Below, piece by piece: positions 2,856-10,569 of a stretch of 11,454 nucleotides of DNA. The stretch's first letter is position 1, and each line of letters starts with the position of its first letter. The position numbers and the translations under genes are program-made. This DNA is from a virus (taxonomy: Duplodnaviria; Heunggongvirae; Uroviricota; Caudoviricetes): the IMG/VR virus record IMGVR_UViG_2585427747_000005; one strand, written 5' to 3'. Below the pieces are notes generated by a model that saw only the letters and a list, made by a program, of their open reading frames with translations, was not told where the DNA came from and ran no database searches.

Positions 2856-3141
2856 AAACCGCTTGCAAAAAATTATCACGGGGCTGTATGCTTCCCCCGT
2901 CGCCCACATGGCGACCGGGTTTGACAGCCTGAATACATCTGGCGGACAGCCGCCCACATCCGATAAGCGGTTTTTTTGTGTCCGTAAACCTACCCATACC
3001 CGCATTATGGCGGGGCGTAACGGGGGAGCCTTTGTGCTCGCTGGTTTCCAGATGACCAGTCTGTCAACCCTGTTACGTCTCGCCACCATGTTTGACAGCG
3101 TAGTAGCGAGACTCCTTAAAATTCATCTGGGAGCCTTTCAC

Positions 3142-6270: not shown

Positions 6271-6498
6271 GCTGTCTACCCTGTCTACCTGAGTAAAGAA
6301 AAATACATTTAATTCAGTATATTAACTTAGGTAGGCAGCCTTTTTTCACTGTCTACCTACTATCTACCCTCTCTACCTGATTTTACCTGAATCAGACAGG
6401 GAGGTAGATACGGGGTAGATAGTGGATAAAAGCACTCTACCCCGCTGAAAGCCGCGCCATTACTGGCATGAGAGCCAGTAAGGTAGATAAGGTAGACA
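6271..6498. repeat. Origin of replication: iteron array (TGTCTACC and variants, both orientations)
   Basis: TGTCTACC at 6273, 6282 and 6350; ATCTACC at 6362; CTCTACC at 6371 and 6434; inverted GGTAGATA/GGTAGACA at 6403, 6414, 6482 and 6491; immediately downstream of the replication gene. Confidence 0.7.
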
Positions 6499-7223: not shown

Positions 7224-7239
7224 GCGACGAGTGACAGAA

Positions 7240-7261
7240 GCCGGAGCAATCCGGCTTTTTT
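7240..7261 (+). terminator. Rho-independent terminator after ssb
   Basis: GCCGGA-gcaa-TCCGGC stem-loop followed by 6 T. Confidence 0.7.
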
Positions 7262-7325
7262 ACGGGGCCTCCTGGCGGGGTGGGCCTGAACACGGGGCGG
7301 GAGGCGCGGAAAAAAGCGCATTTTT
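7262..7325 (+). other. Degenerate cos-like repeat (diverged copy of the cosQ/cosN segment)
   Basis: ACGGGGCCTCCTGGCGGGGTGGGCCTGAACACGGGGCGGGAGGCGCGG aligns by eye with 9702-9755, but the cosN core is altered. Confidence 0.4.
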
Positions 7326-7441
7326 GTGATTTTATCGTCATCATCATCATGAGCGTAATTTATTGTTTTTAATTGTTTTGATGCAAAAAAGATGATGGTT
7401 ATGGTTAATTTTTGTTCGACATCTTTGCAGGCAGATAAAAA

Positions 7442-7478
7442 AGCCCGATAAGGTCAGAGGTGGCTTATCGGGCTTTTG
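7442..7478. terminator. 11-bp-stem hairpin flanked by A and T runs (possible bidirectional terminator)
   Basis: AGCCCGATAAG-gtcagaggtgg-CTTATCGGGCT then TTTT; A-run upstream. Confidence 0.4.
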
Positions 7479-7554
7479 CATATGAGGCTTTTTGGTGCAC
7501 TGACACACATGATCGGGATAATCATTTCATAATTTGCAACACAACTCAATATCA

Positions 7555-7638: not shown

Positions 7639-7845
7639 ATGGCTGAAGAGAAAAAAGGCGGTGTTTCGGTGTACATAAGCCCCGAAATCGTGGAGGTGCT
7701 CAAGCAGCGCCACAAAAAAAACTATGAGGCTGGCGTGGCGGCTGGACTGGATCCGCTGATGACGCCGGAGCCGTCGATAGGTTCACTTGTACGCTCTTAT
7801 TTACTTGCGGCGCTTGGGATGCATAAAAATTATGGGGGTGAATAA
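7639..7845 (+). CDS. Hypothetical small protein upstream of the capsid gene
   Basis: 68-aa ORF; stop overlaps the capsid start (TAATG); possible strand-helix start (VSVYISPEIVEVLKQ). Confidence 0.5.
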   Translation: MAEEKKGGVSVYISPEIVEVLKQRHKKNYEAGVAAGLDPLMTPEPSIGSLVRSYLLAALGMHKNYGGE

Positions 7846-8900
7846 TGGCAGGCAAAGCAACGGCACTTAACACTCACCAGCTTTTTGCGTACCTGAATCG
7901 CGGGGATATTGCGGAATTTAAATTTAGTCCGCTGTTTACCACGCTGTTTTTCCCGAAAGTAGCGACATTCAACACCCAAAACATCATGCTGGATAACCTG
8001 GACACCGAAGAAGTCACTATGTCAGCGTTTTGCTCGCCTATGGTTGGTAGCCAGGTACAGCGCGATAAAGGGTACGAAACCAGCACGATTAAACCTGGCT
8101 ACATGAAGCCAAAGCACGAAATCGATCCAACAAAAACCATCATGCGCATGGCTGGAGAAGATCCGGCACAGCTTAACGACCCAACCTATCGCCGTATGCG
8201 CCTGATTACTGGCAACATGCGCCGCCAGGTAAACGCTATTAAAGCGCGTGTTGAATGGCTGGCGGTAAATGCGGTAACGACCGGAAAAAACATCATTGAG
8301 GGCGAAGGCATAGAACGCTATGAAATCGACTGGAAGATGCCGGAAAACAACATCATAGAGCAGGCCAAAGGCCGTAAATGGTCCGAGCAGGACAAAGAAA
8401 CCCACGATCCAATCTATGATATCGAGCTTTATGCGGATCAGGGCAATTGCCCCGCAAACGTCATGATTATGGGCGCTGAGGTATGGCGCACGTTACGCAG
8501 CTTTAAAAAATTCCGCGAACTGTACGATCTTTCCCGTGGTTCAGAATCCGCCGCAGAACTGGCCTGTAAAAACCTGGGCGAAGTGGTGAGCTTTAAAGGC
8601 TATCTGGGCGATATTGCCCTTATCGTCTATTCCGGCAAATACGCCGACAGCGACGGCACCGAAAAACATTTCCTTGAGCCTGATTTGCTGGTCTTGGGCA
8701 ACACCAACAATAAAGGGCTGGTTGCTTATGGTGCGATTATGGATCAGGAAGCGGTAAGAACGGGCGCAACGCAAAACATGTACTACCCGAAAAACTGGAT
8801 TGAGGACGGCGATCCGGCGATTGAGTACGTGCAGACGCACAGCGCACCGCAGCCGGTGCCGGCAGACATTCGCAAATTTGTTACCGTCAAAATTGGTTAA
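7845..8900 (+). CDS. Major capsid protein, lambda gpE family
   Basis: 351 aa; FKFSPLF..LFF, PGYMKPKHE, EDPAQLNDPTYRRMR, YPKNWIEDGDPAIEY..SAP match remembered lambda gpE segments (FKFDPLF..LFF, PGYVKPKHE, EDPQNLADPAYRRRR, YPKNWVTTGDPAREF..SAP). Confidence 0.9.
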   Translation: MAGKATALNTHQLFAYLNRGDIAEFKFSPLFTTLFFPKVATFNTQNIMLDNLDTEEVTMSAFCSPMVGSQVQRDKGYETSTIKPGYMKPKHEIDPTKTIMRMAGEDPAQLNDPTYRRMRLITGNMRRQVNAIKARVEWLAVNAVTTGKNIIEGEGIERYEIDWKMPENNIIEQAKGRKWSEQDKETHDPIYDIELYADQGNCPANVMIMGAEVWRTLRSFKKFRELYDLSRGSESAAELACKNLGEVVSFKGYLGDIALIVYSGKYADSDGTEKHFLEPDLLVLGNTNNKGLVAYGAIMDQEAVRTGATQNMYYPKNWIEDGDPAIEYVQTHSAPQPVPADIRKFVTVKIG

Positions 8901-8911
8901 CGGGGGATTCT

Positions 8912-9247
8912 ATGAACACTCCATACATTGAGTTATTTGCAGGCAGTCAGCAGGTATCCACGACGCTGGTACATTTTGCCGCTGATGCTGGCGTCATTCA
9001 GGAATTTACCCCGCTGATGCTGGCGGACAATGGCGAGTTTAAGCCGTGGGATGGTCAGGCGTCCGGAAAGGCTGTTTATCTGACTTCGTACCCCGTGGAC
9101 ACGTCAAAGCAGAAATCAGCACAGTGCTACAAGACGGGGATCTTTAATATCGCCGCCGTGAACTGGCCCGAGAGCGTCGACACCGATGCGAAAAAATGCG
9201 CCGCCTTTGCGGGTTCTGGCGTATCCGTTCAGCCGCTGGCCCGATAA
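8912..9247 (+). CDS. Head decoration protein, lambda gpD family
   Basis: 111 aa; TPLMLADNG..WDGQASGKAV...YKTGIFN..WPE...KKCAAFAGSGVSV parallels lambda gpD TPLMLDTSS..WDGTTDGAAV...YKSGTFR..WPE...KKRTAFAGTAISIV. Confidence 0.85.
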   Translation: MNTPYIELFAGSQQVSTTLVHFAADAGVIQEFTPLMLADNGEFKPWDGQASGKAVYLTSYPVDTSKQKSAQCYKTGIFNIAAVNWPESVDTDAKKCAAFAGSGVSVQPLAR

Positions 9248-9259
9248 GCAGGGGGAACG

Positions 9260-9673
9260 ATGGCAACGAATGAAAGCATCATGACGCTACCGCTGGCGAG
9301 TAAATTTAAAGCCGAAGCGCGGGCAATGGCTGACAGAGGTTTATCAACCTACGAGGCCGTATATCAACTCAACAAACTGGAAGAGCAGGACAAGCCGCGC
9401 GCTGATGCGATTATGGCGCTTCATGAGCATAACGACTATCAGCCGCTGTTACGTGCAATGGCAAACGTGCCTTGTATCGATGTTGGTACGGCTAAAAGCA
9501 TCCTTAGCATGACCATAGAGCAGGAACGCCAGAAGGTTGCGCCGGAGCTTACCGCAGCCTTTGAAAACTTTATGGACATGCACAGCCCGCAAGCCGTTTC
9601 AGCTGGCATGGCATACGACGGCAGAAACCCGGGCGATGATGGCGACATCGAGCGCATACTGAAAACCATCTGA
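9260..9673 (+). CDS. Hypothetical protein, last gene of the head-module operon
   Basis: 137-aa ORF with an AGGGGG Shine-Dalgarno; acidic and helical-looking; no confident homolog recognised. Confidence 0.55.
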   Translation: MATNESIMTLPLASKFKAEARAMADRGLSTYEAVYQLNKLEEQDKPRADAIMALHEHNDYQPLLRAMANVPCIDVGTAKSILSMTIEQERQKVAPELTAAFENFMDMHSPQAVSAGMAYDGRNPGDDGDIERILKTI

Positions 9674-9679
9674 GACAAG

Positions 9680-9702
9680 GCCGGAGAAATCCGGCTTTTT
9701 TT
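9680..9702 (+). terminator. Rho-independent terminator
   Basis: GCCGGA-gaaa-TCCGGC followed by 7 T; near-identical to the hairpin at 7240-7255. Confidence 0.7.
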
Positions 9703-9770
9703 ACGGGTCCTTTCCGGCATATGGACCCGTTACGGGGCGGCGACCTCGCGGGTTTTCGCTATTTATGACG
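9703..9770 (+). other. cos: Lambda-type cos site (cosQ-like segment plus cosN GGGCGGCGACCT at 9735-9746)
   Basis: ACGGGTCCTTTCCGG...CCGTTACG|GGGCGGCGACCT|CGCGGGTTTTCGCTATTTATGA matches remembered lambda cos flanks, diverging only in the cosQ-cosN spacer. Confidence 0.8.
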
Positions 9771-9835
9771 TTTTTCCGTGAAGGTGACACCACCACCACT
9801 TGATTAATATTTAACCATGCAGTTAAGGTAACATT

Positions 9836-10276
9836 ATGATTGATAAAGCTTGTTTTGTAAGTCAGCAGGAAATAGCTGAACATTTCAAGGTTAACAGAAC
9901 CACTATTCGCGCATGGACCAAACAGGGGATGCCGTATCTTAATGCGGATCGCGGAAAGTCTGGCGGTTATCACATCGGGCATACATTGCTTTGGTCTTCA
10001 GGTAAAAGCCGTCTTGAGGCCATCAGATATCACGTAGAAACCAGTGCGCTGGAAAAAATTATGTTTGCCAGGCTGCTTTCATCTGAGCGTGACGAGTACT
10101 CCAGTGAAGAAACAGAACATAGATTTGATGAAGGTTTACAGATTTACGGCTACTCACCGGAAGAAGTGAGCAAAGCGCGAAATAAAATGGCCGGCTTTCT
10201 GGCTGGGTGGCGTCATGCCGTAAGCGTTCGCCGTGCCAGCATGGAACAATCAGTCGTTACAGAACAGCAAAGTTAA
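9836..10276 (+). CDS. Terminase small subunit homolog (lambda Nu1-like wHTH); Rpp-like packaging-redirection candidate
   Basis: 146 aa; VSQQEIAEHFKVNRTTIRAWTKQGMPYL parallels lambda Nu1 KKQLADIFGASIRTIQNWQEQGMPVL; no large terminase gene in the window. Confidence 0.8.
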   Translation: MIDKACFVSQQEIAEHFKVNRTTIRAWTKQGMPYLNADRGKSGGYHIGHTLLWSSGKSRLEAIRYHVETSALEKIMFARLLSSERDEYSSEETEHRFDEGLQIYGYSPEEVSKARNKMAGFLAGWRHAVSVRRASMEQSVVTEQQS

Positions 10277-10306: not shown

Positions 10307-10460
10307 CAATACAACAACCACGTATTTTTTTAAAACTATTTGATTCAATTAGCATTTTTTTATTTTTAGCATCAAAAAAACACTATCAGGTTGTTGTATT
10401 GCTCTTTATTTTTACTTAGTTATCAAATGGATATGACAAACAATTAAACAACAACCTCCC
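10307..10460. repeat. cosB-like array: three ACAACAACC/GGTTGTTGT sites in an AT-rich segment
   Basis: CAATACAACAACC (10307-10319) and its exact inverted copy GGTTGTTGTATTG (10391-10403); third ACAACAACC at 10449-10457; lies between the terS-like stop and the inverted cosN. Confidence 0.45.
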
Positions 10461-10469
10461 TCTAAAAAA

Positions 10470-10537
10470 GCTCATAAATAGCGAAAAACCGCGAGGTCGC
10501 CGCCCCGTAACGGGCCATAATTCCAGGAAGGACCCGA
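10470..10537 (-). other. cos: Second cos copy in inverted orientation (cosN GGGCGGCGACCT on the minus strand, 10494-10505)
   Basis: Reverse complement reads CGGGTCCTTCCTGG...CCGTTACG|GGGCGGCGACCT|CGCGGTTTTTCGCTATTTATGAG, an imperfect inverted repeat of 9703-9770. Confidence 0.7.
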
Positions 10538-10569
10538 CGACACCAGACTATCAGAGCGATGGGGGCACA

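Follow-up and report, generated by a model that had tools for sequence, protein, structure and literature searches.

The island and its hairpin-cos segments

The window, meaning the whole 11,454-nucleotide stretch of DNA analyzed here, is, judging from its sequence, an 11.3-kb phage-inducible chromosomal island (PICI) of the EcCICFT073 family inserted in tqsA. An identical locus in E. coli SW4848, likewise inserted in tqsA, is annotated as encoding an integrase, an AlpA-like HTH protein, Icd-like proteins, a DUF5906 primase, SSB, a major capsid protein, a head decoration protein, and several hypothetical proteins. Direct repeats of 23 bp, spaced 11,279 bp apart, are the likely att sites. The module order (int-alpA-primase/ori-morphogenesis/packaging), the length of ∼11 kb, the att repeats, and the lack of a full virion gene set are all characteristic of PICIs. 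EcCICFT073, the prototype Gram-negative PICI, was located at positions 17930 to 28900 of locus L009 and matches the window in gene order and sequence, with protein identities of 99% for the primase, 94% for the capsid protein, and 97% for Rpp. The configuration seen in the window is present in at least 160 complete E. coli genomes. Two further features of the island were observed. Iterated CTGTCTACC/GGTAGATA repeats (positions 6272 to 6492) lie directly 3′ of the primase gene, which is the position of the replication origin in PICIs. A C4 antisense RNA (Rfam RF01695, 72.6 bits; 2886 to 2935, plus strand) and its a1/b1 target (RF03163; 3003 to 3090, plus strand) are located upstream of the icd-like genes and form an immunity cassette in the style of P1, P7, and P4 inside a PICI.

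The lambda-type head module occupies positions 7639 to 9673 on the plus strand. It begins with a 68-amino-acid (aa) open reading frame (ORF) at 7639 to 7845, followed by genes for an E-like major capsid protein (7845 to 8900; Pfam Phage_cap_E, E = 4e-50), a D-like decoration protein (8912 to 9247; Pfam HDPD, E = 6e-18), and a 137-aa Nu3/scaffold-like protein (9260 to 9673; PHROG match to the C-terminal, Nu3-like part of head-maturation proteases), all on the plus strand. According to the original prediction, these four genes are bracketed by direct copies of a segment in which a terminator hairpin and a T-run are followed by cos-like sequence, and reading the sequence bears this out: all three elements are present at 7240 to 7330 (copy A) and at 9680 to 9770 (copy B), one on each side of the 68-aa ORF and the capsid, decoration, and Nu3-like genes.

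The first hairpin (7236 to 7261, plus strand) is the predicted intrinsic terminator of the primase-ssb operon. Its stem, AAGCCGGA/UCCGGCUU, is closed by a GCAA loop (GCCGGA-GCAA-TCCGGC, 7240 to 7255), and its T6 tail (7256 to 7261) leads straight into the cos segment. By sequence and fold (−15.4 kcal/mol, z = −4.75), this GC-rich stem-loop with its T6 tail, lying at the operon end 13 nt beyond the stop codon of ssb, has the makeup of a Rho-independent terminator. The terminator hairpin after the head module (9680 to 9702, plus strand) has the form GCCGGA-GAAA-TCCGGC (9680 to 9695) followed by T7 (9696 to 9702), folds with −14.6 kcal/mol (z = −4.2), and agrees with the first at 21 of 22 positions. 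Folding picked up both hairpins, neither of which was listed by a consensus terminator scan, and Rfam contained no RNA family matching the copy-A site. In a contig motif scan, more than 120 bacterial genomes from unrelated taxa (Bacteroidota, Bacillota, Pseudomonadota, and others) proved to contain the exact 22-nt terminator GCCGGAGNAATCCGGCTTTTTT; the scan yielded no further islands. Since only ∼0.3 matches are expected by chance, we regard it as a convergently favored terminator design with a GNRA loop; the hairpin motif is a generic terminator. A second strong hairpin, the inverted repeat AAAAAAGCCCGATAAGG...CTTATCGGGCTTTT at 7432 to 7484 (−25.6 kcal/mol, z = −4.6), encloses copy A together with the first terminator.

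Copy B (9703 to 9835, plus strand) is a lambda-class PICI cos and corresponds to the published cos1. Its cosQ, GGGTCCT (9705 to 9711), and its cosN, ACG/GGGCGGCGACCT/CG (9732 to 9748; cohesive end GGGCGGCGACCT at 9735 to 9746), are those of lambda, and its cosB is PICI specific, with ACCACCACC at bp 55 to 63. The segment is identical to the site that precedes rpp in EcCICFT073 and agrees with the EcCICFT073-type PICI cos in every sequence criterion. The rpp gene (9836 to 10276, plus strand) encodes a 146-aa Nu1-like winged-HTH protein with a PHROG match to terminase small subunits and 30% identity to residues 3 to 55 of lambda Nu1. Its start lies exactly at bp 102 from the first base of the copy-B cohesive end, which is where the start of rpp has been placed (PMC9026076), and the layout of copy B is as described previously (PMC9026076, PMC6739421). 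The original prediction overlooked a third, inverted lambda-class copy (copy C; ∼10390 to 10545, minus strand), which faces copy B across rpp in the position of the published cos2. Copies B and C form an inverted repeat (86% over 72 nt; arms at 9704 to 9775 and 10465 to 10536). In copy C, cosQ is located at 10535 to 10529 and the cohesive end at 10505 to 10494; its cosB, of a class of its own, differs from that of CFT073 cos2 and is 74% identical to the cosB preceding rpp in island L019.

In CFT073, one cos lies on the plus strand 104 bp before rpp and the other on the minus strand after rpp; they correspond to copies B and C, respectively. For EcCICFT073, two cos sites have been reported, both combining a lambda-like cosQ and cosN with a nonphage cosB; cos1 is required for transfer and is recognized by Rpp-TerS, deletion of cos2 raises lambda-mediated transfer, and the reason for having two sites was stated to be an open question (PMC6092414, PMC6739421). 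In CFT073, the stretch from ssb to the 68-aa ORF contains perC and then the same hairpin (GCCGGAGCAATCCGGCTTTTTT) and no cos. The second hairpin of the window is kept in EcCICFT073, and from this hairpin (position 7432) onward the two islands are nearly identical. Because the CFT073 hairpin runs straight into the second hairpin, copy A is an extra block of 170 bp between two terminators. It also follows that the head module of this island was not made by an event between copies A and B, as had been proposed, since EcCICFT073 carries the same module and hairpin without copy A; copy A was gained or lost independently of the module.

Copy A and the cos sites of S-class phages

The likeness between copies A and B exceeds chance (local score of 49 versus 14.2 ± 2.2 and a maximum of 26 in 1,000 shuffles). 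In the pairwise alignment, it extends past the hairpin to the T-run and cosQ, as predicted, but it is significant over 39 columns only. Once the hairpin is excluded, just the 9-mer ACGGGGCGG in cosN aligns, with a score no better than that of the shuffles, and the two cosB regions are ∼57% identical, the level of unrelated cos pairs.

The relatives of copy A are found elsewhere. Nucleotide similarity to sequenced phages is confined to two stretches of the 3.5 kb between ssb and rpp: copy A, over 170 nt including cosB, resembles one group of phages, and cosQ-cosN of copy B, over 81 nt, resembles lambda-like phages. A BLAST search of 50,697 phage records with copy A returned identities of 87 to 90% over 169 nt (window positions 7258 to 7426; E ∼ 1e-56). 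The matched phages are all lambdoid: Stx2a- and Stx2d-converting phages, VT1-Sakai, 1720a-02, CP-1639, and mEp460. We refer to the cos type of VT1-Sakai/Sp15, several Stx2 phages, and mEp460 as S-class. A P2/P4-type cos had also been considered for copy A and was ruled out by these lambdoid matches. In VT1-Sakai, the homolog of copy A is situated between Rz and a gene for a 158-aa protein, followed by the large terminase gene, which is the position of cos. Scanning IMG/VR with the pattern CACGGGGCGGG-N2-8-GCGGAAAAA returned 120 loci, including ∼85 phage contigs and ∼25 islands of the same family as the window; in the phage contigs, the motif lies 160 to 240 bp upstream of terS and terL. The linear mEp460_4F5 record starts with CCACGGGGCGGG and ends with GGGTCCTCCCGGTGGGGTGGCCTG, so that its termini fall within the S-class site, with the break 5 nt from the nick predicted by analogy to lambda.

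By phage homology, copy A is a complete S-class cos (cosQ-cosN-cosB; 7258 to 7430, plus strand). It comprises a cosQ-like GGGGCCT at 7264 to 7270, a cosN-like ACG/GGGCGGGAGGCG/CG at 7292 to 7308 with a predicted 12-nt end GGGCGGGAGGCG at 7295 to 7306, and a cosB from ∼7310 to 7430 that includes CGTCATCATCATCATG at 7336 to 7351, all on the plus strand; the phage homology ends at GTTCGACATCTTT|GCAGGC. Measured against lambda cosN, copy A agrees at 6/6 positions of the left half, at both CG flanks, and at 1/6 positions of the right half, versus 12/12 for copies B and C. The lambda-class cosQ, GGGTCCT located 30 bp upstream, is found in B and C; copy A has GGGGCCT at 31 bp. Copy A also departs from the EcCICFT073-type cos in having a phage-type cosB, in lying 2.4 kb from rpp, and in being absent from EcCICFT073. 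The original prediction interpreted it as a diverged lambda-like cos with an altered cosN core, a view that the extended match, cosB included, to the cos of another phage lineage contradicts. The core is normal for the S-class lineage: it is one substitution away from the phage core GGGCGGGCGGCG, within the natural variation of the class, in which core length among phages is 12 to 14 nt. The exact core GGGCGGGAGGCG was found in islands only and in none of the sampled phages.

The S-class large terminase has both GpA domains and is 24% identical to lambda gpA. The S-class TerS is a DUF1441 protein, for which protein comparison detected no similarity to Nu1 or Rpp. From these two properties, it appears that Rpp could not serve S-class helpers, and the phage-type cosB of copy A agrees with this. 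Clustering of 140 sites by the cosB part from +22 to +135 gave clusters that track the phage TerS groups one to one: cluster 6 corresponds to the Sakai-type TerS (93 to 100% identity to VT1-Sakai TerS), cluster 8 to the 67 to 77% group, cluster 9 to the 51 to 61% group, and cluster 7 to the 32 to 36% group. Copy A falls in cluster 6. The eight phage sites of this cluster share 149 invariant alignment columns, ∼138 of them within cos, and copy A departs from the phages at two of the latter; its other nine differences lie beyond the end of homology at GTTCGACATCTTT. Copy A therefore belongs to the S-class cos sites both on homology over cosQ, cosN, and cosB and on the retained phage-invariant positions. 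One of the two changes is T→G at position 7267 in cosQ, where sister islands L016 and L019 retain T. In lambda, cosQ is needed for termination, and the cosQ of copy A may accordingly be weakened by this change in an otherwise invariant heptamer.

Cos slots and alleles across related islands

Judged from these comparisons, the island holds its cos sites in fixed slots: slot A after ssb, slot B before rpp, and slot C, inverted, after rpp. Slot A contains a cluster-6 site in the window, L016, L019, and L117, a cluster-9 site in L032 and L059, a cluster-7 site in L014, L049, and L108, and a cluster-8 site in L031 and L095; in L051, L058, L122, L026, and L097, which were outside the clustered set, it has a cosB judged by eye to be of the cluster-8 type. 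Each of these four S-class cosB types is ∼88 to 90% identical to the corresponding phage class. The cosB of L032 belongs to cluster 9 and is unlike that of the window, yet it ends in the same right-hand junction (...GTTCGACACCTTTGCAGGCAGAT), which points to allele replacement in a fixed slot. The presence of four class-matched cosB types together with a conserved junction is difficult to account for unless a working site is selected for.

S-class sites also occur in the other slots. They occupy slot C in L113, L087, L099, and L021 and slot B in some islands, where they are followed by a gene for a DUF1441 TerS homolog or directly by a gene for a 93-aa protein. Islands of the same family without rpp (L028, L049, L100, L108, L123, and L014) were observed to encode a DUF1441 protein (e.g., L108, 10371 to 10856), whose identity is 46 to 48% to VT1-Sakai TerS and reaches 74% to TerS proteins of other S-class phages. 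Encoded directly after an S-class cos, this protein may correspond, in the S-class, to a satellite TerS or to Rpp. In L032 (13576 to 13700) and L059, the slot-B cos is a hybrid: its lambda-type hairpin and cosQ are identical to those of copy B, its cosN core (GGGCGGGAGCGGCG) is S-class, and its cosB resembles that of EcCICFT073 cos2. Such hybrids indicate that the subsites of cos recombine as separate modules.

Head modules flanked by cos sites recur in these islands, several of which carry two direct cos sites ∼2.54 kb apart around the module. In L051 and L108, both sites are S-class, and they enclose an ORF of 69 to 75 aa and a gene for a 629- to 637-aa ClpP-protease/capsid fusion that is 50 to 57% identical to the head protein of S-class phages. 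The cos-flanked head module is thus a recurrent design that accommodates two unrelated types of head genes. S-class phages use a ClpP-MCP fusion for the head, versus the lambda-type head genes of the window, and the E-like capsid gene was present in none of the S-class phage contigs examined. The original prediction also placed a module boundary at these cos positions, for which L028 provides direct evidence: it corresponds to L108 minus 2,536 bp containing the head module, and the alignments of the two islands overlap by 80 bp inside the cos repeat, where the junction lies. This deletion would result equally from homologous recombination and from cyclization after terminase has cut at two compatible cos sites.

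Several additional observations concern the genes and sites compared here. A small ORF of 68 to 75 aa is always found 5′ of the capsid gene in both head-module types (window, 7639 to 7845; L051, 6545 to 6772; L108, 7994 to 8203). The encoded sequences look ribbon-helix-helix-like (e.g., VSVYISPEIVEVLKQ), and homologs were found in island sequences only, with none among the phage genes compared. A possible tie between this ORF and copy A was dropped because EcCICFT073 has the ORF without copy A. The Rpp-binding element proposed in copy B (ACCACCACC, 9789 to 9797) resembles CACCATCACCACCAC, which is located at the same offset in the cluster-8 cosB (compared in slot A of L051, L031, and L095); the Sakai-type cosB has CATCATCATCAT there. 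Since all classes seem to use triplet-repeat R-like elements, the PICI cosB may not be unrelated to the phage cosB. When the cos-rpp region was compared with E. coli genomes by megablast, the matches were dominated by prophage cos sites.

Proposed packaging role of copy A and comparison with known systems

The explanation that we favor, with reasonable though far from complete confidence, is that copy A serves as an extra, helper-specific packaging site for S-class helpers and that the set of sites widens the helper range of the island. Under this explanation, the satellite has packaging sites matched to two unrelated terminases and is probably able to hijack helper phages of two kinds. With an S-class helper growing in the cell, the helper's own TerS would bind the phage-type cosB of copy A, its large terminase would nick cosN of copy A, and island concatemers would be packaged rightwards; Rpp would not be needed on this route. 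Approximately four 11.28-kb units (45.1 kb) would fill a 44- to 48-kb head, paralleling the published packaging of EcCICFT073 into phage-sized capsids. Helpers of the lambda/phi80/21 class would be captured via Rpp-TerS at copy B, the published route, and differences in specificity among the sites in slots A, B, and C would extend the range further. The same repeats double as crossover points for the exchange of head modules and cos alleles. Because the right halves of cosN differ, ends cut at A would fail to anneal to ends cut at B. Starting at copy B, a lambda terminase would meet copy A at 42.7 kb, before reaching the next copy B at 45.1 kb, and both lengths would be inside the lambda packaging range; the different core or the cosQ change may keep copy A invisible to it.

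Several points count against a packaging role. The T→G change at 7267 may weaken copy A. EcCICFT073 moves well without copy A, and the head genes of the island are lambda-type where S-class phages have ClpP-MCP. No second Sakai-type cos was found in six sampled genomes with this island type, so that a resident S-class helper is not evident there, and the confinement of the core GGGCGGGAGGCG to islands counts in the same direction.

Some of these points favor a neutral scar, in which copy A is a leftover, caught between two terminators, of recombination between an S-class phage (or an island that parasitizes S-class phages) and an island that parasitizes lambda. The family is highly mosaic, the window has a point change at an otherwise invariant cosQ position, EcCICFT073 is fully mobilizable without copy A (PMC6092414), and the lambda-class head module and rpp make the island look specialized for lambda-class helpers. 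We nevertheless consider a scar unlikely. Approximately 136 of the 138 phage-invariant positions are kept over 170 nt of noncoding DNA, the same slot elsewhere holds four intact-looking cosB classes, each near a living phage class and in one case reached by allele replacement, and the configuration is as widespread as noted above (at least 160 complete E. coli genomes).

We judge it improbable that copy A is mainly an interference decoy, which would soak up S-class terminase on the amplified island DNA and thereby block the packaging of S-class phages; this is the terminase titration of the original prediction, transferred to the terminase that suits the site. Island DNA replicating in many copies, each with a complete phage-type cosB, would be a competitor for TerS, interference of PICIs with helper packaging is known (PMC6739421), and a weakened cosQ, by permitting binding and initiation with poor termination, would be in keeping with a trap. 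Sister islands nevertheless have an intact cosQ, and binding and nicking of a site would lead to packaging of the island as well, which makes a decoy inseparable from the favored packaging role by sequence alone.

The paired hairpin-cos repeats could instead serve as portable homology, or as paired terminase cuts, for swapping head modules, with packaging from copy A being incidental. The clean removal of the head module inside the cos repeat in L028 relative to L108, the occupation of the same cos-flanked position by the lambda E/D/Nu3 module and the ClpP-MCP fusion module, and the existence of hybrid cos sites such as that in slot B of L032 (lambda-type cosQ, S-type cosN core) would all agree with such a use. 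Exchange of this kind does take place in relatives. The copies in the window are nevertheless of different classes and have 39 nt in common, making them poor substrates; exchange is a consequence of the repeats and not a selectable function; and the full phage-like cosB kept in each slot would be left unexplained. A primary role in cassette exchange is quite improbable. That copy A arose from the island's lambda-like cos by duplication and decay, through insertion or duplication of the head module between cos copies, is highly improbable, since the direct repeats around the module and the cos-by-cos deletion in relatives are outweighed by the contrast between the 39 nt and 9-mer shared with copy B and the 169-nt phage match that includes cosB, by an A-B cosB identity at the level of unrelated pairs, and by the same head module in EcCICFT073 without copy A.

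Returning to the favored packaging role, a broader view is conceivable that we hold only tentatively. Satellites may keep up to three cos slots that are reloaded from circulating helpers, with Rpp capturing the lambda Nu1/gpA class and copied cosQ-cosN-cosB sites the DUF1441/GpA class, and head modules may be cos-flanked cassettes that are gained or lost by cos-by-cos recombination or terminase cutting. If true, it would account for the presence of more than one cos in some PICIs, a question posed in the literature. Virulence and resistance genes travel with PICIs, as far as the host and helper range of the islands allows. The only mechanistic model for Gram-negative cos-PICIs, in which Rpp redirects lambda-class TerS to cos1, leaves extra cos sites and Rpp-incompatible helpers unexplained; an S-class cos in a defined slot would be a concrete and cheaply testable answer to both. 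Copy A further brings Stx-converting and O157 prophages into consideration as helpers of these islands. In the islands compared, cos sites serve as joints at which capsid modules recombine, which bears on how the satellite toolkit is assembled. Were copy A inert, the diverged repeat would still have a simple origin.

PICIs with more than one cos are known already, as are satellites that carry the cos of a helper. Our search of the literature for a third or an S-class cos in PICIs found only cos1 and cos2; a third, slot-bound site of a terminase class other than that of the island's Rpp system, the pattern of slots and alleles across islands, and the cos-by-cos deletion of a head module were likewise not found in the searchable literature. 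Among satellites, P4 carries the cos of its helper P2, so that a small replicon is packaged through the helper's cos, and in double-cos cosmids the DNA between two direct, compatible cos sites can be lost or packaged separately. Unlike P4, which has one cos of one class, the window has two direct sites with incompatible cohesive ends.

In lambda cos, bp 7 to 12 of cosN tolerate change, and the left half and cosQ are constrained (PMC4669245). Copy A resembles this site in its cosQ heptamer 30 to 31 bp upstream of the predicted nick, its ACG/GGGCGG left half, the CG flank after the 12-mer, a cosB immediately to the right of cosN, and the concentration of natural variation in bp 7 to 12. It differs from lambda cos at five of six right-half positions; the S-class core is 12 to 14 nt, its cosB is unrelated to the lambda R sites, and the cognate TerS is a DUF1441 protein, not Nu1.

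In the accounts cited in PMC6092414 and PMC5052747, SaPIbov5 and SaPIbov4 carry the helper's own cos and are packaged by an unmodified phage terminase, as would be the case for copy A, and for SaPIbov4, two putative cos sites have been reported. As described there, these islands differ from the window in being Gram-positive elements that use HNH-dependent cos phages and a single terminase class, with no combination of a mimicked site and an Rpp-redirected one. The closest counterpart is EcCICFT073 with cos1, cos2, and Rpp (PMC6092414, PMC6739421, PMC9026076), which belongs to the same island family, has the same gene order, and documents more than one cos per island; it transfers well (PMC6092414), and the island itself is without copy A. 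Set against that system, copy A adds a third site and does so in another slot, after ssb, where EcCICFT073 has perC; it is distinguished from the EcCICFT073 cos sites by another right half of cosN, by a phage-type cosB, and by its match to phages with a TerS unrelated to both Nu1 and Rpp.
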